Shown: positions 1 to 62,451, counted from the first letter of the stretch. The stretch: 63,230 bases of DNA from a virus (IMGVR_UViG_3300016484_000766:1-63230); one strand, 5' to 3'. The notes: generated by a model not told the origin, from the letters alone. Made by a program: numbers and translations.

Positions 1-22
1 CCCCCCCCGAAAGTAGACGACC

Positions 23-331
23 ATGAAGCCAGCGCATAAGTACCAGCTTCGCAAGTGGGACGACAAAGATAACATCATCGTCGTGGCTTACGAAGGCGCA
101 CAGCTATGCACTGAAATATGGATACCGAGTTTAGCGCGGCGGGTTCCGTTCAGTCGCCGTCTGGCTACCGTACGCATCAAAGAGCAAGACGGCTGGCACG
201 TGATCCCGGAGTTCGGGGAATATGACGACGTGCACGAGCAAGTGTCGTTCGAGCGCCTGATTCCCGCCGTGCGGTACATGGAGACCGTGATGCGGCTTAG
301 CCAAGGAGCCCCCGATGAAGACGCCGCGTAG
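23..331 (+). CDS. Small protein, C-terminal helix-motif family
   Basis: 102 aa ORF ending ...PAVRYMETVMRL; matches the motif shared by ~20 neighbouring small ORFs. Confidence 0.75.
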   Translation: MKPAHKYQLRKWDDKDNIIVVAYEGAQLCTEIWIPSLARRVPFSRRLATVRIKEQDGWHVIPEFGEYDDVHEQVSFERLIPAVRYMETVMRLSQGAPDEDAA

Positions 332-581
332 CCCGGGCAGCACGTACTGGACCGACGGCTTCGCGCAGCAATCTCACTGCCACGCGTTGTGGAAAGTCGA
401 TGCGTCCGGGCTCATCGCATGTGTGGCCGTTCTTTATCTGCAGGACGGAACGTGGCGGGCCCGGCGCCCAAATCTGCCGGCGTCCTCCCCTCACGACGAC
501 CTCGCCTGGTTCAAGATGACGACCGACCGGCCCGAAGACGCCAAGATGGTCCTAGAAGTTTCCCTCAGACTCGGAACTTGA
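315..581 (+). CDS. Small protein, C-terminal helix-motif family (divergent)
   Basis: RBS AAGGAG upstream; ends ...PEDAKMVLEVSLRLGT. Confidence 0.7.
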   Translation: MKTPRSPGSTYWTDGFAQQSHCHALWKVDASGLIACVAVLYLQDGTWRARRPNLPASSPHDDLAWFKMTTDRPEDAKMVLEVSLRLGT

Positions 582-674
582 TTACGAGTCAGCAGTCATA
601 GCGAGCGGGCGCGTGGCTGCATTTCAACCCACCCCGTGTTTCCTTCCACTCACTTGCTTACTGAAAGGCAAACC

Positions 675-1688
675 ATGAAGTACTCGAACCTCAAGCGCAC
701 CATCGTCGCCCAGTGGACCGCCCCCGCCGGTCACAAGATGGCCTACCTCATCCTGGGCAAGCCCGGTGGCGGCAAGTCGGCGCTCAGCCTCGACATCGTC
801 AAGTCGCTCGGCGGCACCCCCGAGAACACGGTCGTCTTCACGCCCTCGCTGCGCGATCCGGTCGACGTGCTCGGCACCCCGAACAACCAAGGCGAGGTCA
901 CGCGCTGGGTCCCGCCCGCCGAGTTCTACAAGCTGCGCAAGGGTGTCGGCAAGTGCTTCCTCGTCATCGAGGAGCTGACCGACGCCACGATCCCCATGAT
1001 GAACGCCATGTGCCGCATCGTGCTGGATCGCCACGCCGGTGACCTGGAACTCAGCGACGAGCTGTACATCATCGGCACCGGCAACCGCACCGAGGACAAG
1101 TCCGGCGCCAACCGCCTGACGACCAAGCTGGGCAACCGCCTGAACATCCAGCACTTCGACGAGAACCTTGACGACTGGGTGGACTGGGCCATGGCCAACA
1201 ACATCGACCCGGTGCTGATCCAGTTCATCCGCTTCAAGCCGAACCTGCTGAGCGACTTCGACCCCAACCGCGCCTACGGCGTCAACCCCACCCCGCGCCA
1301 GTGGGAGAAGGTGGCGCTGTCGCCGACGACCCTGCCGACCGACTTGTTCATGGAGAACGTCAAGGGCCTCGTCGGCGAGGGCGCGGCGGCCGAGTACGCG
1401 GCGTTCCGCAAGATCTACGCCGGCCTGATCTCCTTCGAGGAGGTGGTCATGAACCCGAAGACGGTTCCGATCCCGAGCGATCTGTCGGCGCAGTACGCCA
1501 TCATCGGCTCGATCAGCCACAACACGACCAAGGCCAACATCGAGCGTGTGGCTGAGTTCGTGGAGCGCCTGCCGAGCGACTTCTCGGTGATGTTCTGGCA
1601 GGACACGACCAAGCGCTCGCCGGACGTGAAGACCAGCAAGGCGTTCATCAAGTGGGCGACCTCCGCCACCAACGTCGTCATCAACTAA
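675..1688 (+). CDS. MoxR-like AAA+ ATPase
   Basis: Walker A GKPGGGKS, Walker B FLVIEEL, sensor TGNR, NRL arginine-finger region, PTPRQW; ATG 675 follows GAAAGG. Confidence 0.9.
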   Translation: MKYSNLKRTIVAQWTAPAGHKMAYLILGKPGGGKSALSLDIVKSLGGTPENTVVFTPSLRDPVDVLGTPNNQGEVTRWVPPAEFYKLRKGVGKCFLVIEELTDATIPMMNAMCRIVLDRHAGDLELSDELYIIGTGNRTEDKSGANRLTTKLGNRLNIQHFDENLDDWVDWAMANNIDPVLIQFIRFKPNLLSDFDPNRAYGVNPTPRQWEKVALSPTTLPTDLFMENVKGLVGEGAAAEYAAFRKIYAGLISFEEVVMNPKTVPIPSDLSAQYAIIGSISHNTTKANIERVAEFVERLPSDFSVMFWQDTTKRSPDVKTSKAFIKWATSATNVVIN

Positions 1689-1695
1689 CCACGGG

Positions 1696-1720
1696 GCCGG
1701 GGCCGAAGCCCCGGCAATTT
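1696..1720 (+). terminator. GC-rich hairpin after the ATPase (weak terminator or stabiliser)
   Basis: GCCGGGGC-CGAA-GCCCCGGC followed by AATTT. Confidence 0.5.
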
Positions 1721-1721
1721 C

Positions 1722-1985
1722 ATGCAATGGTCTGTTTCTAACCTAGGGCGTTGCCCCTCCCACATGCTCATGATCAAAGGAATCACAACAGCCGCAGTTG
1801 TTGACCTGAACCTCGATCCGGGGCGCGAATGCACCGCCCCGCGGTTCTTCGCTGTGGTGAGCGGCGACGTGCTGGAGCTTCCTCCGGACGCTGACGACGT
1901 CGAAGCAGCCAAGCGCTACGTGGAAGTGCTGATTACTCTGGACCGCGGCCATGCGGCCACGCAAGGAGCGAAACATGGACGATGA
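1722..1985 (+). CDS. Small protein, C-terminal helix-motif family
   Basis: Contains DVEAAKRYVEVLITL near the C-terminus. Confidence 0.75.
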   Translation: MQWSVSNLGRCPSHMLMIKGITTAAVVDLNLDPGRECTAPRFFAVVSGDVLELPPDADDVEAAKRYVEVLITLDRGHAATQGAKHGR

Positions 1986-2331
1986 CGACAACGGAGAGCC
2001 GCGCGCCACGTGGCGCACAGTTTTCTTCATCAGCGCCGACTACGACGGCGTTAGCGTCGACTTTGCCGTCTCGTACGACAAGGCCGATGAGCTCCAAGAC
2101 GCGATCAAGGCCGAGCGGGTAGCGGCTAGGCTCAACGGCGGAGGCATCGACGTCAATAGCCTTGAAGCCCGGTTCCCCGAGGCGTTCCGTGCCGCTGAGG
2201 ACGTGTCGCTCATGAGTATCCGAGCCCGTACGAACATGCGCATCAAAGGCCCATTCAACGTCCTGGCCGACCACGCGCTGACCGACGAGGAGATGATTGC
2301 ATGGTTCAAGATGAAGCACCCGAGAGGGTAA
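1975..2331 (+). CDS. Hypothetical protein
   Basis: ATG 1975 with AAGGAG RBS; stop overlaps the next start (TAATG). Confidence 0.75.
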   Translation: MDDDDNGEPRATWRTVFFISADYDGVSVDFAVSYDKADELQDAIKAERVAARLNGGGIDVNSLEARFPEAFRAAEDVSLMSIRARTNMRIKGPFNVLADHALTDEEMIAWFKMKHPRG

Positions 2332-2597
2332 TGCCATATGACCCCGAAGGTCGTATTAACCGCAGGACTACGGGGTGGTACCACGACGGCAAAGAGTACT
2401 ACCGCTACTTCGACAGTGTCTCGTCGCTGTGGCTCGTACTCGTGCAGTTTGAAGGCGGGCGAGCGACGCTAGAGATGTGGGACGACGCCAAAGCGGAATT
2501 CGTCGCGGACGAGATACCCCACTTCGACGACATTCAAGCAACGCTCCGTTACGCGCGTGCCGTGTACGCGCTCTCGGGGTTGAGGCCGACTCAATGA
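2331..2597 (+). CDS. Small protein, C-terminal helix-motif family
   Basis: Coupled start; ends DIQATLRYARAVYALSG. Confidence 0.75.
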   Translation: MPYDPEGRINRRTTGWYHDGKEYYRYFDSVSSLWLVLVQFEGGRATLEMWDDAKAEFVADEIPHFDDIQATLRYARAVYALSGLRPTQ

Positions 2598-2851
2598 CTG
2601 CGCTGACGTGGCAACCGCCGAATGGCAAGGGTTTTTGGGAGCTCAGAGCAAGCGAGGGGCCTTTCCCCAACAAAGCCCTTTTGTACCTACGTACCGACCG
2701 CGGTACCGCAGATATGACGTACCAGCTGTGGAGAGGGCTCAAGCCGGGCGGTATGTCGTGGACCGAGAGGACGCCGGTCCCTGTGGGCATGTCCGTAGAA
2801 GAAGCTCTACGCTACGTCGAAGTACTAGCGCGCATGGAGATGGCCGAATGA
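2594..2851 (+). CDS. Small protein, C-terminal helix-motif family
   Basis: ATGA overlap; ends SVEEALRYVEVLARMEMAE. Confidence 0.8.
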   Translation: MTALTWQPPNGKGFWELRASEGPFPNKALLYLRTDRGTADMTYQLWRGLKPGGMSWTERTPVPVGMSVEEALRYVEVLARMEMAE

Positions 2852-3120
2852 GAGCTGAAGATTTCGAGCGGCAAAGAGCCGACGACGAACGCGCATCAAG
2901 CCTTCACTGGCATAACTACAAACAAAGCAGCGTGGAGAACGCGGTTCCGTATCCGGCAGTGATCCATTGGCAGGATAAGACGTACGCTTTCTGGCCCCTA
3001 CACAACACCGCCTTTATGTTCGGCCCCCTCGTTCCTTTCCCCGAGGAGCTGAAAGACGCCCCTCGTAAGCAGGTCATGGACTACGTCCTGACCGTTTTTC
3101 TGTTGACCACCAAATCCTGA
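2848..3120 (+). CDS. Small protein, C-terminal helix-motif family (divergent)
   Basis: ATGA overlap; ends PRKQVMDYVLTVFLL. Confidence 0.7.
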   Translation: MRAEDFERQRADDERASSLHWHNYKQSSVENAVPYPAVIHWQDKTYAFWPLHNTAFMFGPLVPFPEELKDAPRKQVMDYVLTVFLLTTKS

Positions 3121-3132
3121 GGACTTACTTAC

Positions 3133-4377
3133 ATGTCAACGACTCCGCAGATCGTCAAGATCACCAAGGACGACCAAGGCAACAAGGTCGTCACCCCAGT
3201 GACCCAAGCCGAGGTCGACGAAGCCCGCGCCAAGTGCAAGCGGCTGATCGACAAGGCGCGCGCGTTCATCGTGCTGGATCACCCGTTCTTCGCGTCCATC
3301 ATGCTCAAGCGCCCGTTCACCGAGCGCTTCGACATTCCCACGCTGGCCGTCACCGACTCCGGCAACATCTTCTACAACCCGTTCTTCATCGCGCAGCAGG
3401 AGCCCGACCAGATCGTCTGGGCCATCTGCCACGAAGTGCTGCACTACGCGTCCGGTCACGGCCTGCGCCGCGGCTCGCGCGACCCGAAGAAGTGGAACGT
3501 CGCCGGCGACGCCTGGATCAACGACACGCTGACGTCCATCCCTGTGGGCAAGCCGATCCCCGGCACTGTCAACATGCCCGGCAGCAAGGACCGCACGGTC
3601 GAGGACATCTACGCCACGCTGCCCGAGGACGACGGTGGCAAGGGCAAGAACAAGGGCGGCCAGGGCAACCCCAGCGGCCAGGGCGGCGACCCCATGGCCG
3701 ACGACATGGAGGACGACGGCGCGGGCAAGGACCCCTCTGCCGCAGCGGAGGCCGATGCGCAGCGCAAGCTCGACGTTGCCGAAGCGGCTCAAGTGGCCAA
3801 GGCCAAGGGCAAGCTGCCCGGCCAGCTCGCGGACTTCGTGTCCGACACCATCGAGTCGCGTACGCCGTGGTATGACATCCTGGAGCGCTACATGACCGAG
3901 CGCATCAAGAACGACTTCAGCTGGGCGCGCCCCAACCGTCGCTACATGCCCGACTACTACCTGCCGTCCATCGACGGCGTTGGCGCCATGGGCCCCATCG
4001 TGTGCCAGGTCGACATCAGCGGCTCGATCTCGCAGCAGGAGATCGCGCACTACAACGGCCACATCAAGCGCATCATCGAGCAGTGCCGTCCGACCAAGGT
4101 GCACGTAATCTACACCGACACGCAGGTGCAGAAGCACGAGGAGTTCGACAACCCCGACGACGTCGAGATCCGCTTCTACTCCGGCGGCGGCACCGACATG
4201 CGGGCCGGCTTCGACTACATCGAGCAGCACGGCATCGAGCCCGAGGTCATGGTGACGCTGACGGACGGCTACACGCCGTTCCCCGAGGACACCTCCGTGC
4301 CGTCGGTGTGGTGCATCAGCACCAAGAACATCTCGTCCCCCTGCGGCGAGAACGTGCACTTCTCGCGCAACGACTGA
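3133..4377 (+). CDS. DUF2201-type protein: N-terminal zincin metallopeptidase-like domain plus C-terminal vWA domain
   Basis: HEVLH (HExxH), Gly/Asp-rich linker, MIDAS DISGS, GGGTD and LTDG motifs. Confidence 0.9.
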   Translation: MSTTPQIVKITKDDQGNKVVTPVTQAEVDEARAKCKRLIDKARAFIVLDHPFFASIMLKRPFTERFDIPTLAVTDSGNIFYNPFFIAQQEPDQIVWAICHEVLHYASGHGLRRGSRDPKKWNVAGDAWINDTLTSIPVGKPIPGTVNMPGSKDRTVEDIYATLPEDDGGKGKNKGGQGNPSGQGGDPMADDMEDDGAGKDPSAAAEADAQRKLDVAEAAQVAKAKGKLPGQLADFVSDTIESRTPWYDILERYMTERIKNDFSWARPNRRYMPDYYLPSIDGVGAMGPIVCQVDISGSISQQEIAHYNGHIKRIIEQCRPTKVHVIYTDTQVQKHEEFDNPDDVEIRFYSGGGTDMRAGFDYIEQHGIEPEVMVTLTDGYTPFPEDTSVPSVWCISTKNISSPCGENVHFSRND

Positions 4378-4386
4378 GGAGCAGTC

Positions 4387-4803
4387 ATGCGGTACTACGC
4401 AAGCAAGCCGCTAGCTTCCCAAATACGCGAGCAGAAAGATGCGCGCCCGTGCGAGAGCCTGCGAGCCGCCATCTTCGATGCGCGGCTTGAGATGGAGACG
4501 GAGCAGCGTACCCAGCGCCTACTGGACGAGATGCGCAAGCTCAAGGTGCGCAAGCTGTGGGTCAACACCGATGAGCACGGCTATCCCTCTACATCGCTCA
4601 AGGGGTACACGCACGTCATTGCGCAATCCGACGCCGGCGTAGACGCGAACGCGTTCTGGTCCGCTGTACATCGCGCCGGGCTGCGCTACGGGTGCGGCAA
4701 CGGGATGAGCTACGTGAAAGCTGCTCAGGCCCAGATATACCACCGGGACGCTATTTACCTGCGCCCCGGCCTCTACGACTTTTCTGACGAGATCGACGCA
4801 TGA
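4387..4803 (+). CDS. Hypothetical protein
   Basis: GAGGAG RBS, 138 aa, coupled to the next gene. Confidence 0.7.
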   Translation: MRYYASKPLASQIREQKDARPCESLRAAIFDARLEMETEQRTQRLLDEMRKLKVRKLWVNTDEHGYPSTSLKGYTHVIAQSDAGVDANAFWSAVHRAGLRYGCGNGMSYVKAAQAQIYHRDAIYLRPGLYDFSDEIDA

Positions 4804-5132
4804 ACATCCAAAAACTTACCGACTACTTCGCGCAGCAAGGGGCCACCGCTTTCCTCGCCCACGAACAGGCCCGCGCCGTTGTGCGAGCAGTAAACGAGCG
4901 GACCAACATGGCCGTAGACAACGCCGCCGCGCTCCTGCGCGTCGCTCTGGTAGTAGCTACGGTGAGCTGCGTCGTTCTGCTCGGCGCCGGTGTCTTCTAC
5001 CTTGGCGGCTACTGGCCGCTGGCGTATCTGGTGCTTGTGCTTGGCGTCGCCTTGGGCGTTTCCTACTACCGCTATCGCCGCGCTGTTCTCGCTCGGCAGC
5101 TGTTGCTGGTCGAGCAACGACTGGATGCGTGA
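4800..5132 (+). CDS. Small membrane protein (2 TM)
   Basis: Two hydrophobic segments; ATGA overlap. Confidence 0.7.
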   Translation: MNIQKLTDYFAQQGATAFLAHEQARAVVRAVNERTNMAVDNAAALLRVALVVATVSCVVLLGAGVFYLGGYWPLAYLVLVLGVALGVSYYRYRRAVLARQLLLVEQRLDA

Positions 5133-5133
5133 C

Positions 5134-5460
5134 ATGGCGACCAACATCAGCTACGCAGGGCTTGCGGCGTACATGGAGTCATGCGAACGAGCCATGCTGG
5201 CTTGGCGGCTGCGGGAGCGGTCCAGAGGCCTGCTCATAGCGGCTATCGGGTGCAACTTCGTCAGCTATTCGTTTCTTCTGGCGGGGTACGCCGGAGCAAA
5301 GCTGAGCCCCCATACGGCGTATGCGGTCCTGGTCCCGCTGGGTATGGCCGTGGCGTTCTCCGTAGCCGCGCGCCAAGTCCGCAAGAAGTTCATCCTTCAG
5401 CTCGTCATCGACCGGCTGGAAGGCGTCAACAACCGTCTCAAGGACACGTCAGTTCTTTAA
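5134..5460 (+). CDS. Small membrane protein (2 TM)
   Basis: ATG 5134 directly after the previous stop; two hydrophobic segments. Confidence 0.7.
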   Translation: MATNISYAGLAAYMESCERAMLAWRLRERSRGLLIAAIGCNFVSYSFLLAGYAGAKLSPHTAYAVLVPLGMAVAFSVAARQVRKKFILQLVIDRLEGVNNRLKDTSVL

Positions 5461-5470
5461 GGAGCGCAAC

Positions 5471-5998
5471 ATGGCAACCAGAAAGCAACCCGCCAAACCG
5501 GCAGACACCCCTCCCGAAACCCCCCAGGAGCCGATCAACCTCCACGAGGCGGTCGGCAATTTCAAGCGGACGTTCAGCCAGGCCGTGCTGAAACGAGCCA
5601 ACGAGTTCGACCCCGACGAGATGGCCAAGGAGCTGATCAAGGACCTCGACGCGGCCAAGCGCGAAGTGGTCGCCAAGCTGCTCGGCTTCGACAACCGCTA
5701 TGGCGAGTGGGAAGTCGATCACTGCAACGGCCGCGAATCACCCATCACCAACTACATCCAGCAGGAGTGTGGTGACGTTGTCCGCCAGTGGGTGCACGAG
5801 GCGGTCCTGGAGGAGCTGACTGACGCAAAGAAGAACTCGCTCAAGGCGGCCGTGCGCGAAGCGCTTAAGGCCGGCATCGACAACCACTTCCGCGAGCTGT
5901 CCTGGCACTATTCGCGCGACCACGCCAAGGAGATCGCCAACGGCATCGTCAACGAGGTCCGCAAGGAGGTCAACGACGCGATGCGAGGCAACTCATGA
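5471..5998 (+). CDS. Hypothetical helical protein
   Basis: TAAGGAG RBS, strong codon bias. Confidence 0.8.
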   Translation: MATRKQPAKPADTPPETPQEPINLHEAVGNFKRTFSQAVLKRANEFDPDEMAKELIKDLDAAKREVVAKLLGFDNRYGEWEVDHCNGRESPITNYIQQECGDVVRQWVHEAVLEELTDAKKNSLKAAVREALKAGIDNHFRELSWHYSRDHAKEIANGIVNEVRKEVNDAMRGNS

Positions 5999-6831
5999 GC
6001 CACTCCCAGTTCGCCGACAAGTTCTCCCGACGCCAACTAGGCCGAAAGACGCTGCTTGTCCGCACCAAGCTGCACATGAAGGAAGACCCCGACGGCAGCT
6101 TCGTGTTCGAGTGGCGCATCAAGAAGGACAACATCGTCGACATCGCGCGCCTCACAACGGACAACAAGGTGCACATTCTGTGCCCTGAGCCCTACATCGG
6201 CATGCAGACCGTGCATCGCCACATCGAGTGGATTGTCGGGTACGGATGGAAGCTCCCCTGGGGCGCTTTCTCGGTGTGCAACCGTAAATCCAGTACGCGC
6301 CTTCACCGGACCCGCGCGCGGTTTGATTACCTGAGCCGGCGCGTGTGGGCGTACGACGTGCCGTTCACCCAAGAGCTTGCCATCGACATCAACGGCGCGA
6401 AGCCCCGCCCAGTCGCGCATGCACCCGACATGGTCATGTCGACGGACAGGAAAGCCGCTCGGCCGGTGTATGAGCACACCCGCAAAGTGCTCAAGGCCAT
6501 TGTCGTCATGCACCGCATCGGCGCGTTCGACGGGCTCAAGTTCTACTCCGGCATCAGCAAGGCCGTGGACAGCATGGACGCGCGGCTGGAAGAGGACGCC
6601 GTCGGCGAACAAGCCGAGAAAGCGTACCACTCCGCCTGGGCCACAACTTACACCGGTCCCTCCGGCAAGCATGTGAACGGCCGATGGGTAAGCCTCACGC
6701 CGGAAGAGATCGGCCGACAAAAGCTCTCACGAGTGCTGCGCAAGGCTCGGGCCTTGCTGCACGAGAAATTGGCGATTGCGAACGGGTTCCGCACTGCCAA
6801 GGCAAAGGATGAACCCGAACTCCCTGACTGA
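5995..6831 (+). CDS. Hypothetical protein
   Basis: 278 aa ORF with ATGA overlap. Confidence 0.75.
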   Translation: MSHSQFADKFSRRQLGRKTLLVRTKLHMKEDPDGSFVFEWRIKKDNIVDIARLTTDNKVHILCPEPYIGMQTVHRHIEWIVGYGWKLPWGAFSVCNRKSSTRLHRTRARFDYLSRRVWAYDVPFTQELAIDINGAKPRPVAHAPDMVMSTDRKAARPVYEHTRKVLKAIVVMHRIGAFDGLKFYSGISKAVDSMDARLEEDAVGEQAEKAYHSAWATTYTGPSGKHVNGRWVSLTPEEIGRQKLSRVLRKARALLHEKLAIANGFRTAKAKDEPELPD

Positions 6832-6844
6832 CGAAAGGAAACCT

Positions 6845-7516
6845 ATGGCTTATGTAGCCACTTCCCGCGCTCTGCGCAACGCCATCGACTCCCGCCTGCA
6901 GGACATGCAGAAAAAGGAGCTGTCCGGCGTCCACGACTACTCCAAGTGGGTACAGGCGATCGCGCTCGACCCGCTCACGACGCAGTACGCGTACGACGCC
7001 ATGTGGGGCCCGCTCTGGGATCTCCGCGACAGGTTGTCGCCGTACTCGCGGAAGTCTGACGTCCGCGTGATGATCACCTTCTTCGACGAGAAGACGAACG
7101 AGGGCAGCATGCCCCCCGCGTACAAGATGGAGGTGCGGGTACCGCTTTCCGTACCCATTCATTACCAGCCGGGGTCCTACTACCCGGTAGTCGAGATCAA
7201 GGCCGGCGCGCTTGGCGAGACCGAGTCAGCGCGAGAGTTCGTCGCCAACATGCGAACCCGCAACGAGATCCTGGATCGCTGGGCCGTCGTGCGGCAGCAG
7301 GTGTTGAACTTTGTCGACAAGGCGAAGTCTCTCAACGAGGCTGTGCGCCTGTGGCCTGACCTGCGGCGCTACATCGACGACGAGTACCTGGAGCGTCTCG
7401 ACCGCAAGGAAGAGCGCGTCAAGCCGGCCGACAGCGAGGCTGCGAAGGCGCTGGCGCAGCTGGACCCCGATCTGATCACCACCAGCACGGTGCTCGCTCG
7501 CATGGCGCAGCAATAA
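6845..7516 (+). CDS. Nmad5-like (nucleotide-modification-associated domain 5) protein
   Basis: AAAGGA RBS; SLNEAVRLWPDL segment resembles the Nmad5 C-terminal motif. Confidence 0.55.
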   Translation: MAYVATSRALRNAIDSRLQDMQKKELSGVHDYSKWVQAIALDPLTTQYAYDAMWGPLWDLRDRLSPYSRKSDVRVMITFFDEKTNEGSMPPAYKMEVRVPLSVPIHYQPGSYYPVVEIKAGALGETESAREFVANMRTRNEILDRWAVVRQQVLNFVDKAKSLNEAVRLWPDLRRYIDDEYLERLDRKEERVKPADSEAAKALAQLDPDLITTSTVLARMAQQ

Positions 7517-7527
7517 CCCCTGGGTTG

Positions 7528-7573
7528 TGTAAGCGAGTATTGCCTTTATACTTGCTTACACGTACTCTACTAT
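7528..7573 (+). promoter_or_regulatory. Sigma70-like promoter overlapping an inverted repeat and palindromic operator
   Basis: TTGCCT(7540)-17 bp-TACTCT(7563), or alternative -10 TACTAT(7568); imperfect inverted repeat TGTAAGCGAGTAT/ATACTTGCTTACA; GCTTACACGTACTC at 7554. Confidence 0.6.
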
Positions 7574-7578
7574 CCACC

Positions 7579-7779
7579 ATGAGCAACCACACCAACCCCG
7601 TGTTGGACATCTTGGCTCGGCTCAACAACATCGAGCGCCGTCAGATCCGCATGGAGACGCGGTTCTGCAAGTTCCTAGCCCTTGTGGGCGTTTCTAGCGA
7701 TGGCGCGCGTGTCGAGGGCCCGTCCAAGGTCCCGTCCCTGTCTCCCATTCAACCACCTTCCTCGGAGAACCAATCATGA
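7579..7779 (+). CDS. Hypothetical protein
   Basis: ATG just after the promoter; coiled-coil-like; ATGA overlap with the next gene. Confidence 0.6.
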   Translation: MSNHTNPVLDILARLNNIERRQIRMETRFCKFLALVGVSSDGARVEGPSKVPSLSPIQPPSSENQS

Positions 7780-8213
7780 ATACCGGACTTCACTCCATCT
7801 CGTCGCTCGTCAAGCAGTGCGGCAGCAAGTCGAACACCACCGAGATCGCCAAGCGCCTCAAGGCCGGCGGCATCCGCCCCGTGACCCAGTACTTCACTGG
7901 CCGCAAGACCATCTGCCTGTACGGCGATGACGCGCTCACCTACCTCCAGGAGTACCAGCAGCGCCTGGACCGGGTCCGCGCCAGCAAGAAGGAGATCGCG
8001 GTGCAGGCGAACCAGCAAGCCGCGGCGTCCAACATCAAGGTCGACATGATCGAGTCGGACGTGATCGACAAGCTGACCGGCGACGTCGCCGCCATCAAGG
8101 CCAACGTCGAGAAGATCATGGCGGTGACGACCAAGCTGCTCGAAGACCTGGGCGGCCTGGCTGCGGTGGCTTCTGCCGACGCGGACGAAGCTCCGCGCGC
8201 TCTCCATGGCTAA
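7776..8213 (+). CDS. Hypothetical protein with C-terminal coiled coil
   Basis: GGAG RBS, strong codon bias. Confidence 0.75.
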   Translation: MNTGLHSISSLVKQCGSKSNTTEIAKRLKAGGIRPVTQYFTGRKTICLYGDDALTYLQEYQQRLDRVRASKKEIAVQANQQAAASNIKVDMIESDVIDKLTGDVAAIKANVEKIMAVTTKLLEDLGGLAAVASADADEAPRALHG

Positions 8214-8699: not shown

Positions 8700-9049
8700 T
8701 GAGTACCGATTTCAACTTGCACGTGCGCAAGGCCACGAACGGCTGGGTCGTCACGACGTTCAAGAACGGCGGGCTTGAACCGCAGGAAACCATGGTCGTC
8801 GGCGACGGCGAGAAGCTGCACGAGATCATCGCGGCGGCCATCGTTTCCGGACGCCTGACCGCAACCGCGGCTCCTCCTGTTGGTCAGGGTTTGCTTTACG
8901 GACCGGCGTACCAGAAGACGTTCACTACCACCGGCATTGGTAGTGTGAGCACGCAGGCGCACATCTACCCGTCTATCATCAGCGCCGCGCAGGCGTACCA
9001 TGACGCTCAGCAAGCTAACTATCTGGCCAACAAGCTTGCGGCCCGTTGA
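8696..9049 (+). CDS. Hypothetical protein
   Basis: Coupled 117 aa ORF. Confidence 0.65.
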   Translation: MMSTDFNLHVRKATNGWVVTTFKNGGLEPQETMVVGDGEKLHEIIAAAIVSGRLTATAAPPVGQGLLYGPAYQKTFTTTGIGSVSTQAHIYPSIISAAQAYHDAQQANYLANKLAAR

Positions 9050-10959
9050 CCCACATGATCCCGGTAACGCTTGACTTCGAGACGTTCTTCAGCAAGGAGT
9101 ACTCTCTCACCAAGCTCGACTTCGTCCAGTACATCAAGGACGCTCGCTTCGAGGCGATCTCGGTCGCCATCAAGATCGGAGACGGGCGCACCATGGTGTA
9201 CTGGGGCGAAGACGTCATCCGCGAGAAGCTGCAGGAGATCGACTGGGCCACGCACGCGGCCGTGGCGCACAACGGCAACGAGTTCGACTTCCCGGTGCTC
9301 GTGTGGAAGTTCGACTGCCATCCGGCTCTGTTCATCGACACGGTATGCCTAGCGCGCCCGGCTCATCAAGCCGCGTACGGCGGGGTGTCATTGGCGGAGC
9401 TGTCGGAGACGTACGACCTGCCGACGAAGCAGACTCACGTCCTGCACTCCGTGATGGGCAAGCGGTATCTCGACTGGTCGCTGGAGGAGATGCGCGACTT
9501 CGGGCAGTACAACCGGACCGACACCGATAACTGCCACAGCCTGTTCAAGATCCTGGCTCGTTCCGCCGGCAAGAACGAGCTACTACTGTCGGACATGACG
9601 GCGCGCATGATCTGCTACCCGGCGTTCGAGGCGGATCGCCCAATGCTGCAGGCGGCTATGCGGCAGGTTGAGCTGGACAAAGACGCGCTGCTTCACTCCG
9701 TCATGGACGCACTAGGCGTCCTGACGGTGGACGACGCGTTGAAGGCGCTGCGCTCGAACCTCAAGTTCGCCGACGTGCTCCGGGAGTACGGGGTAGAGCC
9801 CCCGATGAAGACCAGCCCGACAACCGGGCAGCAAACGCATGCGTTTGCGAAGACCGACCCCGGCATGGTCGAGCTGACCGAGCACGAGGACCCGCGCATC
9901 CAGCTGCTGGCGCAGGCGCGGCTCGGCTCCAAGTCAACGTTGCTGGAGACACGGCTGGCTCGGATGAACGCCGTCGCTGACGCCATGGACGGAAGGATTC
10001 CGGTCCCGCTGGCGTTTCACGCAGCCACCACCGGGCGGTGGGGAGGGCGGGTCTGGAACCCGCAGAACCTCCCTCGCATCTCGCGCGACAAGTCAGGGAA
10101 CATCATCCCCAAGCCGACGAACGCCCTGCGCATGTCGCTTCGCGCGCCGAAAGGCTGCAAGGTCATCGTGGCCGACTTGTCCGGCATCGAGCTGCGGGTC
10201 AACCATTACCTGTGGGGCGTACACAGCACGGCAGCGCTGTACGCCGCTGACCCCAAGGCCGACCTGTACGTCAGCTTCGGCGCTCGGATGAAGAACAAGT
10301 CAGAGTCCGACGTCACCAAGGACGAGCGGCAGCTGGCAAAAGTCGCACAGCTTGGTCTGGGCTTCGGCGCCGGAGCGCCTACGTTCGTCCGTGTGGCCAA
10401 GAACATGGGCGGCATTGTGCTTACGGAACAGCAAGCCCAGGAGACCGTCGCGGCGTGGCGGGCGGAGTACAGCGCCATCGTCAACGGCTGGAAGAAGTGC
10501 ACTACGGCGGTCTCAGCCATGCGCACAGGCGCTACGTTCTGCCCGGACCCACGGGGGCTTGTAACGACTTCCCGTGGTGCGCTGCTTCTCCCATCGGGCC
10601 GTACGCTGCACTACCCGATGATGCGAAACGTCTATTCAGAGGAGTACAGCCGCAACGATACCTGGTACGGCTGGGGGAAGTACTCTTCCCGGCTCACCGG
10701 CCCGCTGTTGGACGAGAACATTGTCCAGGCGATCGCGCGCGACGTGATCGGGGAGCAAGCACTGCAGTTCAAACAAAGGACCGGGTACATTCCGGCGTTG
10801 ATGGTACACGACGAGCTTGTCTACGTCGTGCCTGAGTCCGAAGCAGAGTCGTTGTTGGGGCTTCTGCAAACGATCATGCGTACGCCGCCTTCGTGGCTTC
10901 CGGGCATTGTGCTCTGGTCCGAAGGGGACATCGCCGACAGCTACGGCGAGGCTAAGTAA
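9046..10959 (+). CDS. polA: Family A DNA polymerase with 3'-5' exonuclease domain
   Basis: ExoI LDFET; TTGRWGG; motif A ADLSGIELRV; motif B RQLAKVAQLGLGFG; motif C VHDELV (start may be ATG 9055). Confidence 0.95.
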   Translation: MTHMIPVTLDFETFFSKEYSLTKLDFVQYIKDARFEAISVAIKIGDGRTMVYWGEDVIREKLQEIDWATHAAVAHNGNEFDFPVLVWKFDCHPALFIDTVCLARPAHQAAYGGVSLAELSETYDLPTKQTHVLHSVMGKRYLDWSLEEMRDFGQYNRTDTDNCHSLFKILARSAGKNELLLSDMTARMICYPAFEADRPMLQAAMRQVELDKDALLHSVMDALGVLTVDDALKALRSNLKFADVLREYGVEPPMKTSPTTGQQTHAFAKTDPGMVELTEHEDPRIQLLAQARLGSKSTLLETRLARMNAVADAMDGRIPVPLAFHAATTGRWGGRVWNPQNLPRISRDKSGNIIPKPTNALRMSLRAPKGCKVIVADLSGIELRVNHYLWGVHSTAALYAADPKADLYVSFGARMKNKSESDVTKDERQLAKVAQLGLGFGAGAPTFVRVAKNMGGIVLTEQQAQETVAAWRAEYSAIVNGWKKCTTAVSAMRTGATFCPDPRGLVTTSRGALLLPSGRTLHYPMMRNVYSEEYSRNDTWYGWGKYSSRLTGPLLDENIVQAIARDVIGEQALQFKQRTGYIPALMVHDELVYVVPESEAESLLGLLQTIMRTPPSWLPGIVLWSEGDIADSYGEAK

Positions 10960-12868: not shown

Positions 12869-13299
12869 AGCAACGCGGCGAATGCGTAGACGCCATTCTG
12901 GCGTTCCTTCGAGCCAACCCTGAGTCCACCACCGGCGAGATCGCTCAGGCCCTTGGCATGACCAAAGGCGCTGTATCGGCTACCCTGCGACGACTGCGAC
13001 GAACCTACGTCGGCATCCCGAAACGGGTCTACATTGCGGACTACACGTACGGCGACTCGCTGCACGGTCGCAGATACCCCCGCCCGATGTACTGCGTAGG
13101 CGACAAGGAGTGCGCCAAGAAGCCCAAAGTCACGATCCGCGAAGTCAGGGAGCGCCACCGCGTGGCTCGCTTCCGCGCTGCTAGCGTGTTCGACCTTGGC
13201 AAGAACCTGCGCGACCGAGAGATCGAGCGCGGCAAGAAACGGAGAGCCCTAAGTGCTGGTACTACCGCAGAAGAAAGCACTGGTCGTCAAGTCGCGTGA
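12865..13299 (+). CDS. Winged-HTH DNA-binding protein
   Basis: TTGEIAQALGMTKGAVSATLRRL. Confidence 0.75.
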   Translation: MKQRGECVDAILAFLRANPESTTGEIAQALGMTKGAVSATLRRLRRTYVGIPKRVYIADYTYGDSLHGRRYPRPMYCVGDKECAKKPKVTIREVRERHRVARFRAASVFDLGKNLRDREIERGKKRRALSAGTTAEESTGRQVA

Positions 13300-14830
13300 C
13301 CCGGACCAGCTTCTCGCGCTGATCCCGACGGCAAGGCCCCTGGTGGTCAAGGGGCAGAAGCTAGTGGCCGTGCCCCACCGCCTCGACGAGACGCGCGTGC
13401 TCCAGAACATGGGCATGTCTCCGCCGTCGCCGATCCGCTACCACTACGAGTGGTCGGGGCAGTACAAGCCGTTCACGGCCCAGATGGACACTGCGGAGTT
13501 CCTGACGCTCCATCCGCGAGCCTACGTACTCAACGAGATGGGCACCGGCAAGACGATGGCCGCGCTGTGGGCGTACGACTACCTGCGCAGCATCGGCAAG
13601 GTGAACAAGGTGCTGGTCTACTGCCCGCTGTCAACAATGGAGCGCACGTGGGCGGACGAGATCTTTCGCCACTTCCCGCACCTGGACTACGTGGTCGTGC
13701 ATGGCGATCGCAAGCGCCGCCAGAAGCTGATCCAGCAGAACGCCCATGTCTACATCATCAACCACGACGGCCTGGACATCATCAGCGAGCAGCTGAAAGA
13801 CCGCAGCGACATCGACCTTGTCATCGTCGACGAGATCGCTCAGGCGGGGCGCAACGCCAGCACAGACCGGTGGCGAACGCTCAACACCGTCGTCAACCTG
13901 CAGCTAGGCGGAGCCCGCTGGTGCTGGGGGGTAACCGGTACACCTACGCCGAACGCACCGACCGACGCCTGGGCTCAGTGCCGCCTGGTTACGCCGTCCA
14001 CGGTCCCGAAGTACTTCGGCCGGTTCAAAGACGCCGTGATGAAGCAGGTGAACCAGTTCCTGTGGGTCCCGCGCCCTAACGCCATGGAGCACGTGCACAG
14101 CGTCATGCAGCCGTCAATTCGGTTCAGCCGCGCCGAGTGCGTGGACTTGCCGCCGTGCGTGTTCCAGACTCGTCAGGTCGAGCTGTCCGCCAAGCAGGCG
14201 AAGGCCTACAAGGAGATGCTCAACCGCCTGAAAGCCGAGGTCGACGGCGGGGAAGTGCTGGCCGTCAACGAAGCGGTGAAGACGGCCAAGCTGGTGCAGA
14301 TCGCCTGCGGCGTGGCGTATGACAACGATGGCGAAGAGATCGTGCTGGACGCTAGCAAGCGCCTTGAGGTAACGCGAGAGATCATCAGCGAGGCAGAAGG
14401 CAAAGTCATCGTGTTCGCACCGTTCGTGTCCGCCGTCAAGTACGTGGCCGACCACCTAAAGCTGTGCGGTATCAGCGCTGAGACGATCTACGGTGAGGTT
14501 CCCAAGCACGAGCGCGACCGCATCTTTGGCGCGTTCCAGAACTTGGACGAGCCTCGCGTCATCGTTGCTCAGCCGGCGGCCATGTCGCACGGGCTCACAC
14601 TCACGGCAGCCGATACGATCATCTGGTACGCACCGATCTTCAGCAACGACATCTACGACCAAGCATGTGCGCGCATCACGCGGCCCGGCCAAAAGCGGGC
14701 TCAGCTGATCGTGAACATCGAGGGAAGCCCTGTCGAGCGGCTCATGTACAACCGGCTCCAGCACAAGCAAAAGATGCAAGGCATCCTTCTGACGATGGTC
14801 GAAGATGCTAGAGTATCAACTGTTGACTGA
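13253..14830 (+). CDS. SNF2-family (SF2) helicase
   Basis: EMGTGKT, VIVDE, TGTP, HGLTL, QACARITRPGQ. Confidence 0.92.
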   Translation: MLVLPQKKALVVKSRDPDQLLALIPTARPLVVKGQKLVAVPHRLDETRVLQNMGMSPPSPIRYHYEWSGQYKPFTAQMDTAEFLTLHPRAYVLNEMGTGKTMAALWAYDYLRSIGKVNKVLVYCPLSTMERTWADEIFRHFPHLDYVVVHGDRKRRQKLIQQNAHVYIINHDGLDIISEQLKDRSDIDLVIVDEIAQAGRNASTDRWRTLNTVVNLQLGGARWCWGVTGTPTPNAPTDAWAQCRLVTPSTVPKYFGRFKDAVMKQVNQFLWVPRPNAMEHVHSVMQPSIRFSRAECVDLPPCVFQTRQVELSAKQAKAYKEMLNRLKAEVDGGEVLAVNEAVKTAKLVQIACGVAYDNDGEEIVLDASKRLEVTREIISEAEGKVIVFAPFVSAVKYVADHLKLCGISAETIYGEVPKHERDRIFGAFQNLDEPRVIVAQPAAMSHGLTLTAADTIIWYAPIFSNDIYDQACARITRPGQKRAQLIVNIEGSPVERLMYNRLQHKQKMQGILLTMVEDARVSTVD

Positions 14831-15457: not shown

Positions 15458-16450
15458 ATGAACATCATCCCGTTTGAATCCGCCAAGGTCCCTGCAGCTC
15501 TAGGCAAGCTGTTTGGCACCGGCGCCGAAGATCTCGTCGGCAACAACGCCTCCGGCGGCTTTCCCGTCATCTCCATCAAGGGCAAGGTCTTCCACATCCA
15601 GCGTGGCGACGAGCGCATCCTGGTGACCAAGCCCGGCGAGGACGACCCCGCGTCCAGCCTGGAAGTGGTGATCATCAAGGCCAACCCGCACCGCAGCAAG
15701 GTCTTTTACAAGACCGGCTACGCCGAAGGCACCACGGAGAAGCCCGACTGCTACTCCAACACCGGCGAGGCGCCCGAGAAGGACGCCAAGGAGCCACAAG
15801 CCAAGAAGTGCGCCGTGTGCCCGCACAACCAGTGGGGGTCGAAGGTCACCGAGCAGGGCGCCAAGGGCAAGGCGTGCGCTGACTCCCGCCGCATCGCGGT
15901 GGCTACCCTGGACGCTCCGGCTGACCCGATGCTGGTGCGCGTTCCGGCCGCGTCGATGAAGGCCATGGAGGACTACGGCAAGCAGCTGGCCGCGCGCGGC
16001 ATCCCGCCGCAGGCTGTGGTGACCAAGATCGGCTTCGACTACTCGGTGGCCCATCCGGCGCTGACCTTCAAGCCTGTCGGCCTGATCGGCGACGCTTCGC
16101 TGCTGGCTGAGATCAAGAAGTCGGCGGAGACCGAGCTGGCCGCTCAGATCGTCGGCCTGATGCCGTCGCCGATGAGCCAAGCCGAATCGGAAGCTGACAG
16201 CGACCCGAGCATGGACAACCTGCCGGTTATCGGAGCGCCCTCGGCGGAGCCTCCGGTCGAGCCCCCTGCCCCCGCACCCGCACCTCGCGCCGCCAAGCCA
16301 AAGACGGTGCCTGCCGAGGCCGCGGTTGACGCTGCCGTGTCGGTTGCTGCCGATACCAAGAAGGCCAACGTGAAGGTCGAAGCTGCCAGCGCCGACAAGC
16401 TGGTGCAGGAAGTCCAGGGCCTGCTGGACAACCTCGACTTCGATAACTAA
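15458..16450 (+). CDS. Putative ssDNA-binding/annealing protein
   Basis: Cys cluster (PDC...CAVCPHNQWGS..GKAC), Pro/Ala linker, acidic C-terminal tail; located just before the primase. Confidence 0.55.
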   Translation: MNIIPFESAKVPAALGKLFGTGAEDLVGNNASGGFPVISIKGKVFHIQRGDERILVTKPGEDDPASSLEVVIIKANPHRSKVFYKTGYAEGTTEKPDCYSNTGEAPEKDAKEPQAKKCAVCPHNQWGSKVTEQGAKGKACADSRRIAVATLDAPADPMLVRVPAASMKAMEDYGKQLAARGIPPQAVVTKIGFDYSVAHPALTFKPVGLIGDASLLAEIKKSAETELAAQIVGLMPSPMSQAESEADSDPSMDNLPVIGAPSAEPPVEPPAPAPAPRAAKPKTVPAEAAVDAAVSVAADTKKANVKVEAASADKLVQEVQGLLDNLDFDN

Positions 16451-16510
16451 GGTCCTTGGGGGTCCGCTCGGCTAAGTACCTAGACAAGCGCTAGGTAACC
16501 CCCGCCACCC

Positions 16511-16540
16511 GAGCCCGCCTCCGTGCGGGCTTGTTTACTT
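16511..16540 (+). terminator. Probable intrinsic terminator
   Basis: AGCCCGC-ctccgt-GCGGGCT followed by TGTTTACTT. Confidence 0.6.
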
Positions 16541-16550
16541 GCGAGCACCA

Positions 16551-19500
16551 ATGCGCGCCATCGACTTCTACAACAGCGTATTGCCGCCATTCGGTCTGCG
16601 CGCCCTGGCGGTGTTCCGGAAAGGGTTGGGCAGCTACCCTGACCACTTCTTCTTCGAGGCCAACGATGACCTGATCGCCTCCGCGGAAAGCTACGACTCG
16701 CTCGGCAAGAACGTCTACCACGGCTGCGCTACGTTCAAGACAGCGGAGAACCGCAAAGCCACCAATGTGCTGGCGGTGAAGTCCCTGTGGGTGGACCTAG
16801 ATACCGGTCCTGGCAAGCCGTACGCATCAGCCAAGGACGCTGCTGTAGCCGTCGAACAGTTCCGCCTGGCGCTAGGGCTCAAGGCCCCGCACTTTGTGCG
16901 CTCCGGCGGCGGGCTGCACGCCTACTTCCCGTTCAACAAGCCGGTGTCCCCCGAGAACTGGAAGCGCCTTGCGGCTGCATTCGGTTCCTGCATGGATCAC
17001 TTCGGCATCAAGCACGACACAAGTCGCACAGAAGATTTGGCGTCCGTGCTCCGCATCCCCGGGACGCACAACTACAAGACGGACCCGGCGCGCGATGTCG
17101 TGCTGGTAAGGCTCGGCGAGGAAGACTCTGCCGCCGGTGTGTACGCCAAGTTCAAACAGTACGCGCAAGACAACGGCATTCTGTTGTCTGAGCCCGTGTC
17201 CCCAACGGTCAAGGTAACAAACGACCTGGTAGGCGCGCCGCCTGAGTACCCGCCGTCCGAATACCAGCGCATCGAAGCTGGGTGCGCCGCGATTGCTGAA
17301 GTGGCTACCACCGGCGGTGACACGACGTTCGACGTGTGGCGCCGAGCCATCGGCATCGCCAAGCACACCGCCGAGCCGAGGGAAGCGGCTATCCGCTGGA
17401 CCCGGAACCGCGCCGACACCGGGCACTCCCAGTACGACTGGGAAGGCGAGCTTGACCGGTGGCGCACAGGCCCCACGACCTGCGCCGAGCTAGACCGCCA
17501 CTGCGACCACTGCGGGTCGTGCCCGCACAACGGCAAGATCAAGTCGCCGATTCAGCTGGGCGTCACAGAAATCCCTGTCGTTAAGCCCGTAACGCCAGAG
17601 CCCGAGCAGGCGCGTAGCGCGCCTATCCCTCCGAAGCGTCCGTGGGAGTTCGGCGCCAAGTGGATTGTGGACGCCGTGAACAGCGAGTGCAAGGTGGGCT
17701 ACAACGGGCGCAACATGACGATGCTCGCCCAAGGCGAAGACGGCCTGAACAAGCACGTCGAGTTCTGCAACCGGTACTGGCAGGTGATGCGCCGGGTGAA
17801 GTCACCCGAAGGCATCTGGCAGATCGAGATTGCCTACAGCATGTACAACGGCCGTCCGCACGAGACTTTCCTCATGGACAGCGCAGCAGTCACTTCCCCA
17901 GACCTACTCAAGAAGGCGTTCTCGGCACGGGAACTCCACATCCGCGGAGGTACGCGAGCAATGAGCAAAGCACAAGAGATTCTGATGTACGAACAGGCCA
18001 TGCTCTACGAGCACGAGCTTGAGACCCCCACGTACCCGGCCATGGGCTGGGCCCGCGTGGGCAACTCCCGCAACGGCGACCTGACCGGCGAATTCGTTCT
18101 TGGTGATACCGTGTTCCGCCCGAAGGAAAAGCCGCAGACTGTGCTAATTGAGAAGGGCGGTGACGCGCACCTGTCCAGCGCGTTCGGCCAGAAGGGGACC
18201 GTCGACGAGTGGACGGCGCTGATCGACTGGATCTACAACCGCCCTGGCGCTGAGCCCTATCAATTTGTCCTGGCGGCTATGTTCGCAGCTCCGCTGGTCC
18301 GTCTGGTCCCCGGGGACGGCGCGTGGCACGGCATCCCTATCGCTCTCATGGGCGAGGGCGGCGCCGCAAAGACCTCTACGGCCCTGGTCGGTATGTCAAT
18401 CTACGCCAAACCCAGCGCCCTGCAGTTCAACGCTCAGGGTTCCAAGGACGGCCAAGGCGACACCATCAACGCGTTTGCTGCCAAGGTCGGCGCGCTCAAC
18501 AACCTTCCGTTCATCGCCGACGAAATGACCGGCGTGGAGCCGGAGCGCATGTCGTCCATCATGTACATGCTGGCCAACGGTAAGCCGAAGGACCGGGCCG
18601 GCATCGACGGCAAGCTGCTTGACAACCGCCACCGGTGGGACACGCTCTCCATCGCTACTGGCAACGAGTCGTTCCACGACAAGCTCCGCGGCCTGCAGAA
18701 CCAGAACGCGCAGAACGCCACGCAGCTGCGCTGCTTCCAGATCGAACTCAAGGTCTCGGACCTGCAGCAAGTGTTCTTCGACGTCCACAAGACCGACATC
18801 GAGCAGAAGCTGCTTGACGAGCAGTACGGCGCCGTCGGCCGGGCGTGGATTCAGTTCCTCGTCAACAACCGCGAGAAGGTCCAGACGCTCCTCGGCGAGC
18901 GCCGCCGCGTGTTCCAGATCGACGACAACGACACCTCGTCCATCCGGTTCTACAAGGACTTGCTCATGACGGTCGAGACCGCTGCGATCCTGGCCAAGCG
19001 CCTGGGGTTCATCCAGTGGGACCTCGCGCCGATGATGTCTTGGGCCAAGGACCAGGTCCGCGGACTCCGCGCCACCGTGCTCCAGCAGGACTGGGAGTCG
19101 GTCTTCTCCGACTTCGTTGCCAGCCTGCACGGCCGGACCATCGTTACCCGCGAGATGAAGGTCGGACCCGGTCGCCGCGCCAACAAGAACGCCGAGATGC
19201 CGCTTGAGCCTCTGTCGTCGGCTGCGCCGCCTGTCGCGCGCCGTGCTATTGCCTCGCGTCTGTTCTTCGTCACGTCGAACGCGATGACGGACTGGTGCTA
19301 CAAGAACCGCGTCAACGCCCCGGCCCTGGTCAACGAAATGATCGACCGCGGGTTCATCGTGATCCCCAGCGGCTCGAAGCGGGTCCCGCGCCTGATCAAC
19401 CTAGGCAGCGGCACGACGGTTACACGCCCGCAGGCGCTGTGCTGGGAGCTGTCCTACGACAAGGTCGCGGACTTCGTGCAGGGCGACGAGGCGGACACGT

Positions 19501-27142: not shown

Positions 27143-27143
27143 G

Positions 27144-54087: not shown

Positions 54088-54115
54088 AGGCCCGCTTCGG
54101 CGGGCCTTTGCCTTT
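54088..54115 (+). terminator. Intrinsic terminator
   Basis: AGGCCCGC-TTCG-GCGGGCCT-TTGCCTTT. Confidence 0.8.
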
Positions 54116-55154: not shown

Positions 55155-55240
55155 GTCTTGTAAGCTACGTGCACTCCTACTCACTCACCAACGCGGAGTC
55201 CTCGCACACCACACGCAATATCGGACCAAGGACACCACAC

Positions 55241-59307: not shown

Positions 59308-59316
59308 GGAGCACCA

Positions 59317-59759: not shown

Positions 59760-59760
59760 C

Positions 59761-61288: not shown

Positions 61289-61292
61289 CGCC

Positions 61293-61538: not shown

Positions 61539-61550
61539 GGAGTCACTTAC

Positions 61551-62450: not shown

Positions 62451-62451
62451 C

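Follow-up and report, generated by a model that had tools for sequence, protein, structure and literature searches.

Why would a phage place about twenty small genes, most of them ending in the same helix, around and between the genes of an AAA+ ATPase, a metallopeptidase-like protein with a von Willebrand factor A (vWA) domain, and a third large protein of 299 aa? This question is raised by the virus record IMGVR_UViG_3300016484_000766 (positions 1–63230), which was analysed over its whole length and is referred to below as the window. An original prediction, made from the DNA sequence alone, regarded the helix as a docking tag for the three large proteins (the trio) and the variable N-terminal parts as interchangeable target-recognition modules or client effectors. 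Our data revealed a family of small proteins confined to this genome, with a tandem pattern of relatedness and selection at the protein level, and a synteny of the trio genes in related phages. The explanation that we favour, tentatively and with somewhat less than even confidence, is a lineage-specific tandem expansion (~20 copies) of a family of small early proteins into diversified binders that are independent of the trio. That the small proteins are directly connected to the trio in function is possible, at about one chance in three.

A family of small proteins with a common C-terminal helix

Listing of open reading frames (ORFs) and inspection of their start codons yielded 21 small plus-strand ORFs of 80–133 aa (m01–m21), located within 57606–63230 and 23–3120 around the three larger genes. 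Read across the record ends on the assumption that position 63230 adjoins position 1, their order is m01–m11 (57606–61538), the 299-aa gene, m12–m16, the AAA+ gene, m17–m21 (1722–3120), and the vWA gene, which is the arrangement described originally. The ORFs are tightly packed, and ATGA or GTGA start/stop overlaps are frequent. The small proteins share a C-terminal motif of approximately [DE]-E-A-x-R-Y-[VAL]-E-[TV]-L-x-R-L, corresponding to an acidic cap followed by a helix. The motif ends 0–9 residues ahead of the stop codon, except in m18, which carries a weak internal version. The tyrosine was present in 17 of 21 sequences, the last leucine in 17 of 20, and the glutamate in 12 of 21.

Membership was assessed by a leave-one-out procedure: a hidden Markov model (HMM) was built from 20 ORFs, and the 21st was scored against 543 decoy ORFs of at least 60 aa from the six frames of the window. 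The omitted ORF took rank 1 among the 544 in 15 of the 21 cases; lower ranks were obtained for m06 and m07 (2), m12 (3), m21 (4), m16 (6), and m18 (75). These ranks lie above chance and indicate that the family is real for ~15–17 ORFs and marginal for three or four, whereas m18 is unsupported as a member. With m18 set aside, four motif genes precede the vWA gene, the number given in the original prediction. Its further statement that motif genes occur nowhere else in the genome also held, since the HMM of all 21 found no further match at E ≤ 1 among window ORFs of at least 35 aa in six frames.

The codons at the conserved columns were diverse. Leucine was encoded by CTC, CTT, CTG, CTA, and TTG and arginine by CGC, CGG, CGA, AGG, and AGA; the conserved L, R, and E columns each used 4–5 different codons, and the mean nucleotide identity over the motif was 43%. 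The variation of synonymous codons at conserved residues shows that conservation acts on the protein and does not reflect a DNA repeat. The copies are 14–34% identical to one another. When cap and helix were removed, only two of the 21 (m08 and m09) kept rank 1 in the leave-one-out test, and m10–m11 was the only significantly similar pair among the N-terminal parts alone. At the level of sequence, then, cap and helix is the only element conserved family-wide, and the N-terminal parts are variable, as had been predicted. With the helix included, BLASTP found the pairs m08–m09, m10–m11, m01–m05, m14–m15, and m08–m20 to be alike over 44–95 residues.

In total, 13 pairs were similar at a BLASTP E < 0.01. 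Six of these are immediate neighbours (m02–m03, m03–m04, m07–m08, m08–m09, m10–m11, and m14–m15), although neighbours make up only 20 of the 210 possible pairs; this excess points to tandem duplication. Other pairs (m05 with m19 and m20, m08 with m20, and m11 with m19) connect copies that the large genes separate. Together with the contiguous trio found in relatives (see below), these cross-side pairs suggest that the family expanded in this phage from one or two copies into the junctions of the trio.

The family profile, searched against 1.84 billion representative proteins, gave 12 matches at E ≤ 1e-3, all with the lengths of the window's own products, and a word-index search returned only four of the window's own proteins. 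Seven members from the window had no PHROG match at E ≤ 0.01 and only noise in Pfam. The small proteins are mostly acidic, soluble, and rich in tryptophan (3.7% vs. 1.7% in six large phage proteins).

The individual copies, all on the plus strand and first in the leave-one-out test unless ranked otherwise above, are arranged as follows. The array begins with m01 (57606–58007, 133 aa; E 2e-4), which is alike to m05 over 49 aa, followed by m02 (58000–58341, 113 aa; first with a weak E of 0.73), m03 (58338–58625, 95 aa; GTGA start/stop overlap with m02), and m04 (58622–58987, 121 aa; E 5e-5). m02 pairs with m03 and m04, and the three form a cysteine-rich subgroup (58000–58987) with 3–4 clustered cysteines in each protein, of which some are spaced as C-x-C or C-x2-C; this hints at a metal site without counterpart in the other copies. 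Next to m05 (58987–59307, 106 aa), the array is split by two motif-less hydrophobic ORFs of 82 and ~65 aa (59317–59759, plus strand) that were absent from the original prediction; their translations apparently contain two membrane-spanning stretches each and gave no match to the family HMM. The array resumes with the weak members m06 (59761–60003, 80 aa) and m07 (60000–60389, 129 aa), the helix of the latter being alike to that of m08 (60386–60664, 92 aa). m08 in turn is alike over 95 aa to m09 (60741–61043, 100 aa), which ranked first with and without the helix. In m10 (61037–61288, 83 aa), tryptophan replaces the tyrosine of the motif, and the N-terminal part is alike to that of m11 (61293–61538, 81 aa; E 1e-5). 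Beyond the 299-aa gene lie m12 (62452–62733, 93 aa; a weak member), m13 (62711–62974, 87 aa), and m14 (62971–63230), which is open at its 3′ end, cut inside the motif, and alike over 44 aa to m15 (23–331, 102 aa). The marginal member m16 (315–581, 88 aa) precedes the AAA+ gene. Between the AAA+ and vWA genes are m17 (1722–1985, 87 aa), m18 (1975–2331, 118 aa; only a weak internal helix-like match), m19 (2331–2597, 88 aa; E 5e-5), m20 (2594–2851, 85 aa; E 9e-6), and m21 (2848–3120, 90 aa; a marginal member).

The three large genes in the window and in related phages

The metallopeptidase-like vWA protein (3133–4377, plus strand, 414 aa) matched Pfam DUF2201_N (E 9e-45; 153.8 bits vs. a cut-off of 23.2) and DUF2201 (E 3e-19; 69.7 bits vs. 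26.4). Residues H100, E101, H104, H109, D294, S296, S298, T354, and D378 were invariant in 13 relatives. We take the first four to be an HExxH zinc-binding motif with a further histidine and the remaining five to be a metal ion-dependent adhesion site (MIDAS; DxSxS, T, and D). Relatives of this protein occur in 582 phage records, mostly of N4-like phages. Its profile found one spurious row only in PDB, and a search with the vWA protein for related loci in viral contigs gave 27 pattern matches, none of which was confirmed.

The AAA+ protein (675–1688, plus strand, 337 aa) matched phrog_1297 “ATPase” (E 3e-65). Residues G28, P30, G31, G33, K34, and S35 (Walker A) and E100 and D103 (Walker B) were invariant in 12 relatives, the Walker names being assigned by reading of the sequence. 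With Pfam AAA_5 the protein scored 18.9 bits, under the 22-bit cut-off, and there was no NCBIfam match; its relative in Synechococcus phage MinM2, labelled MoxR in GenBank, scored 23.6 bits, above the cut-off. Against PDB, the protein alone found nothing and its profile gave weak AAA+ rows (E 0.025–0.1). The window ATPase can only tentatively be assigned to the MoxR group named in the original designation “MoxR-like AAA+”.

The 299-aa protein (61551–62450, plus strand) had no match in Pfam, PHROG, or NCBIfam, and its profile gave four weak rows in PDB. It had been called DUF3150-like; this label is not supported, as PF11348 (DUF3150) matched nothing in the whole window at E ≤ 10 and none of 16 relatives of the protein at E ≤ 0.1. 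The sole link is an identity of 25% to a MinM2 protein labelled “DUF3150 domain-containing” in GenBank, which itself had no Pfam or NCBIfam match in our analysis. The vWA and 299-aa genes were correctly described as sharing a start context: ACTTACATG occurs exactly twice in the window, at these two starts (0.19 occurrences expected; 2 of 100 shuffles reach two). It was absent from all of the 104 other loci in which it was sought, and we treated it as a minor local feature that reflects a likeness between two strong contexts for ribosome binding.

The 299-aa gene has relatives that were collected from 21 IMG/VR loci and 80 metagenome loci (the best 80 of 389 relatives). In 17 of the 21 IMG/VR loci, the three large genes stand side by side as ATPase, 299-aa gene, and vWA gene, with 40–57% identity. 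Of the other four, two are contigs that end inside the trio, and in two a distant 299-aa relative is all that is present. Those 299-aa relatives that adjoin AAA+ and vWA genes in related phages are 40–51% identical to the window's protein, and the closest ones (51%; short contigs L026 and L027) lie upstream of the ATPase gene, as in the window. Judging from these comparisons, the gene order of the older trio module also appears to be altered in this phage. More distant 299-aa relatives (23–30% identity; L054–L105) are common in metagenomes, and tblastn at E ≤ 1e-4 found no AAA+ or vWA gene near them, loci with 10-kb flanks included.

The array itself is specific to this phage, as five trio-bearing related genomes of 91–100% completeness gave one match to the family profile in total and contained no array. 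Across all trio-bearing loci (418 kb), an HMM of the motif built from the window only gave 13 C-terminal matches on the gene strand and none on the opposite strand, and it gave no match in loci, 347 kb in all, where a distant 299-aa relative stands without AAA+ and vWA genes. After collapse of duplicates, the 13 matches represent ~8 genes in ~6 lineages. Several of these genes start at the stop codon of the vWA gene (L002, L004, L007, L032, and L053). A small gene whose start coincides with this stop codon or is no more than 3 bases away recurs in many relatives, in some of which it encodes a different, Trp/Arg-rich terminal helix. Altogether, relatives carry 0–2 small genes with a similar helix. 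A second HMM round including the relatives added no new members, and ten of their small proteins had no match in Pfam or PHROGs. When the profile of the window family was compared with a profile of nine small proteins from related phages, the probability was 48% (P 1.9e-4) over 24 columns covering the helix only, a likeness that we regard as suggestive.

Further small genes were also observed at these loci. In both L020 (9033–10725) and L053 (6701–15745), several small genes with similar strand-plus-helix ends are found in or near the trio: L020 has two paralogs with a terminal helix of GPFP...SAKAA type, and L053 has four to six candidates. Many relatives possess a conserved gene of 67–77 aa between the 299-aa and vWA genes (L004, 10888–11091; L014, 10873–11106; and equivalents), of which no counterpart was recognised in the window. 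In addition, L004 contains four tandem small genes of 75–99 aa (16161–17198) downstream of the polymerase region, with two pairs that look alike at the C-terminus.

Similar ATPase–vWA pairs are known from other phages. Group 2.2 jumbo phages encode a MoxR-type AAA+ ATPase and a vWA cochaperone that carries a fused metallopeptidase domain at its N-terminus, a pair for which a role in virion assembly was proposed (Iyer et al., 2021; PMC7824862). As in the window, the ATPase gene and the gene of the HExxH-then-vWA protein share a strand and lie side by side or a short distance apart; the passage describing the jumbo-phage pair mentions no third conserved gene or small partners, whereas in the window the pair lies in a presumed early/replication operon together with the 299-aa gene and ~20 paralogs. 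N4-like phages (Schitoviridae), e.g., Escherichia phage IME11, encode a “VWA-like domain-containing protein” that is 29–31% identical over 90–96% of the query. In IME11 the ATPase gene is located directly upstream of the vWA gene, with no 299-aa gene and no small gene between the two. MinM2 (OQ594354.1; L023) has a set of MoxR, “DUF3150”, and VWA-like genes with 25–28% identity to the trio, three tandem paralogs of 111–115 aa between the “DUF3150” and VWA-like genes (6878–7904), and a 90-aa gene between the MoxR and “DUF3150” genes. It differs from the window in the order of the trio (ATPase, middle gene, vWA) and in that the three interleaved copies belong to another family without a match to the window motif HMM. 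Our literature searches, supplements aside, found no description of small-gene arrays that surround an AAA+/vWA pair of a phage and have a C-terminal helix in common.

Cellular MoxR–vWA pairs, e.g., CbbQ–CbbO and NorQ–NorD, resemble the window's pair in combining an AAA+ ATPase with a vWA partner thought to bring the ATPase to its target complex. They are not known to use families of small adaptors. Unlike the window's protein, the cellular vWA partners are not known to carry a metallopeptidase domain. RavA–ViaA is a chaperone pair of the same cellular type (PMC3893208, PMC10585395).

Structure of the small proteins and competing explanations

AlphaFold models of m08 and m04 were built from a 19–20-row alignment of the paralogs themselves and are of modest confidence. 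The m08 model (mean predicted local distance difference test score, pLDDT, 65) contains strands at residues 12–15, 40–47, 50–56, and 61–66 and a helix at 75–87; pLDDT is ~80–85 from residue 40 to 90, a segment spanning the last strand, an 8-residue linker, and the helix. In the m04 model (mean pLDDT 60), an N-terminal helix precedes the strands, and the C-terminal helix spans residues 106–119. The best-conserved helix positions, Y, L, and L, would form one hydrophobic face on a helical wheel, as expected if the helix packs on the protein's own sheet. The polar positions R, E, and R, conserved in 11–12 of 20–21 sequences, would lie on the opposite face. From the models, we conclude that the helix probably belongs to a small sheet-plus-helix domain and is not a free tag, its packing on the sheet being deduced from confidence values and compact fold-search alignments, not from coordinates. 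The originally proposed free docking tag is therefore not supported by the m08 model, in which sheet and helix form one compact unit. Substrate-adaptor logic of the F-box kind is similar by analogy, in that one short conserved element is carried by many otherwise variable proteins. In the window, such a motif on otherwise dissimilar proteins is indeed present in sequence, but no sequence or fold relation to F-box proteins was found, the element appears to be part of the fold, and the two models suggest a shared sheet-plus-helix architecture.

Foldseek with the m08 model found nothing at E ≤ 1e-3 in PDB and BFVD. A wide VIA fold search with the same model gave a best Z of 5.0, where 7–8 is typical for models without a true match. 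ESM Atlas gave no usable feature match for m05, and the structural rows (TM ~0.4–0.5) belonged to unrelated families. Class I type III secretion chaperones (SycH, SycT, SpcU), which like the window proteins are small and acidic and consist of a β-sheet and helices, accounted for 13 of the best 50 VIA rows (Z 3.6–5.0, ~70 residues aligned, root mean square deviation ~3 Å). As these Z values lie under the no-match level of 7–8 and the identity was 3–12%, we draw no conclusion on kinship or function from this resemblance. Complex prediction for the vWA protein with m08, run without controls, scored 0.01 vs. a mark of 0.32 and speaks neither for nor against binding.

According to the explanation that we favour, each copy would be a small β-sheet closed by the conserved amphipathic C-terminal helix. 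The role of the helix would be primarily structural, with its Y/L/L face packed on the sheet, and the sheet and N-terminal stretch would have diverged beyond recognition, so that the copies most likely present ~20 different binding surfaces on one scaffold. They would be expressed early, from one tightly packed plus-strand operon extending from non-coding DNA rich in palindromes into the replication genes; the operon has replication genes downstream, the structural genes lie on the minus strand, and start and stop codons overlap. The family was probably seeded from the one or two small genes with a similar helix that occur beside the vWA gene in related phages, and may have spread into the junctions of the trio, which would itself be an older, separately conserved module. 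The copies would most likely bind or modulate host or defence proteins in a stoichiometric manner. About 8.7 kb of the 63-kb genome (~14%) is given to ~20 copies without detectable relative among the 1.84 billion proteins, and such a large investment in a presumed early operon under protein-level selection points to an important and diversified interaction with the host. If independent of the ATPase/vWA-peptidase pair, the copies make up a compact candidate set of host- or defence-binding proteins on one small scaffold; if they are partners of this pair, with its 582 phage records, they offer ~20 natural baits for its targets. Several points weigh against the independent binders. N-terminal homology is undetectable family-wide, and a single fold for all copies therefore rests on two modest AlphaFold models. 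The “early” timing was deduced from gene order. The conserved polar R, E, and R positions would suit a shared partner, and the small genes beside the trio in L020, L053, and MinM2 are more easily explained if the trio uses small variable partners.

The latter possibility leads back, in adjusted form, to the original prediction, in which the ATPase, the vWA-metallopeptidase, and the 299-aa protein form a remodelling or cleaving engine. The small proteins would contact it via a surface built by the helix, and their variable parts would recruit host or defence targets or be themselves processed. This is conceivable but, on balance, doubtful. In its favour are the helix and acidic cap as the only family-wide conserved element and the presence of motif genes at the trio loci of relatives, and all 13 matches of the window HMM fell into trio loci with none in the 347 kb devoid of AAA+ and vWA genes. 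Also in agreement with it are the small gene that so often begins on the vWA stop codon or up to 3 bases from it, the interleaving of small genes with the trio in L020 and L053, and the likewise placed but unrelated three paralogs of MinM2. The vWA domain, moreover, keeps intact MIDAS residues, and in known vWA proteins this site binds an acidic residue of the partner. On the other hand, overlapping start and stop codons are common to nearly all genes of these operons, and the trio-bearing loci all belong to one phage clade, so that co-occurrence may reflect shared ancestry. The five near-complete trio genomes do without the array, relatives manage with 0–2 such genes, no gene separates the ATPase/vWA pair of N4-like phages, and the 582 phage records hold a vWA protein. 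Eleven copies are upstream of the trio, at distances of up to 4 kb from its nearest gene, and the strongest conservation is that of the hydrophobic helix face. In its most specific form, with ~20 interchangeable partners whose helix face contacts the engine (e.g., by the acidic cap or glutamate at the MIDAS) while the variable part selects the target for remodelling or cleavage, the proposal is unlikely; if true, it would represent a viral equivalent of substrate-adaptor families in which a chaperone supplies the drive.

The helix could also be a signal or interface for a partner other than the trio, in mixed oligomers of the paralogs, with a host hub protein, or in targeting to the capsid for co-injection. 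The conservation of an amphipathic helix, moderate on its polar R/E/R face, in mostly acidic, soluble, Trp-rich proteins would be compatible with this, as would the many small dimeric type III secretion chaperones among the weak fold rows, if these (Z ≤ 5.0) were not in the noise range and under the tool's meaningful level. The genes, however, belong to a non-structural plus-strand operon and not to the virion genes, and we consider such an interface rather improbable. Least probable is an array that is largely non-functional, composed of decaying duplicates or mis-called ORFs of a GC-rich genome with a motif left over from recent duplication. Its arguments would be the G+C content at third codon positions, which is lower in the small ORFs (0.67–0.87) than in the three large genes (0.87–0.94), the marginal status of m18, m16, and m21, and the cut m14. 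They are opposed by the age of the copies, which at 14–34% identity retain the same residues with varied synonymous codons and thus testify to purifying selection on the protein; by the tiling of the strand with overlapping start and stop codons and no large gaps; and by the decoy ORFs from other frames, which never score as well.

Genome context and the ends of the record

The IMG/VR record has 63230 bases and a G+C content of 62.5%, is classed as “linear”, and has a CheckV completeness estimate of 100%. The phage is uncultivated; the record was present in one freshwater metagenome run, its possible source, and no RNA run was listed as containing it. Megablast of window positions 1–8000 against 50,697 GenBank phage records revealed no near relative at the DNA level. 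A plus-strand block extends from ~55.2 kb across the record ends to ~19.6 kb and consists of small genes followed by replication genes, identified by PHROG matches: a DNA polymerase (9046–10959), an exonuclease, a helicase (13253–14830), and a primase-helicase (16539–19568). Virion genes, likewise recognised by PHROG matches (terminase, portal-type, major head, internal virion, and tail-fibre), occupy 20.4–52 kb on the minus strand.

Both record ends (63191–63230 and 1–22) lie inside m14, which is cut within its own motif. Read over the join, m14 continues for a few unrelated codons and stops shortly ahead of the m15 start. The similarity of m14 and m15 favours adjacency of the two ends, the exact 33-base join sequence had no match in the metagenome contigs searched, and the genome may be incomplete or not simply circular here, with sequence, possibly including further copies, missing. 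In an independent assembly of run X1, a contig ends at window position 63223, and a protein database has a 63250-base contig on record for the window's proteins. The left end of the record opens with a run of eight C. For run X1, a “longest record” of 82244 letters is also tabulated, a value that could not be interpreted.

Amid the virion genes lies a minus-strand ORF of 2264 aa (20375–27169), residues 1540–2217 of which matched phrog_10089 “DarB-like antirestriction” (E 1.6e-41); several unnamed families of giant proteins were matched too. A perfect 18-base palindrome, TTGCAAAGCGCTTTGCAA, and close variants of it occur 5–7 times within 54570–55160, a stretch without convincing genes. This stretch is located directly upstream of the presumed early plus-strand operon and downstream of a strong terminator-like hairpin (54088–54107), and the palindromes could be operator or promoter elements.

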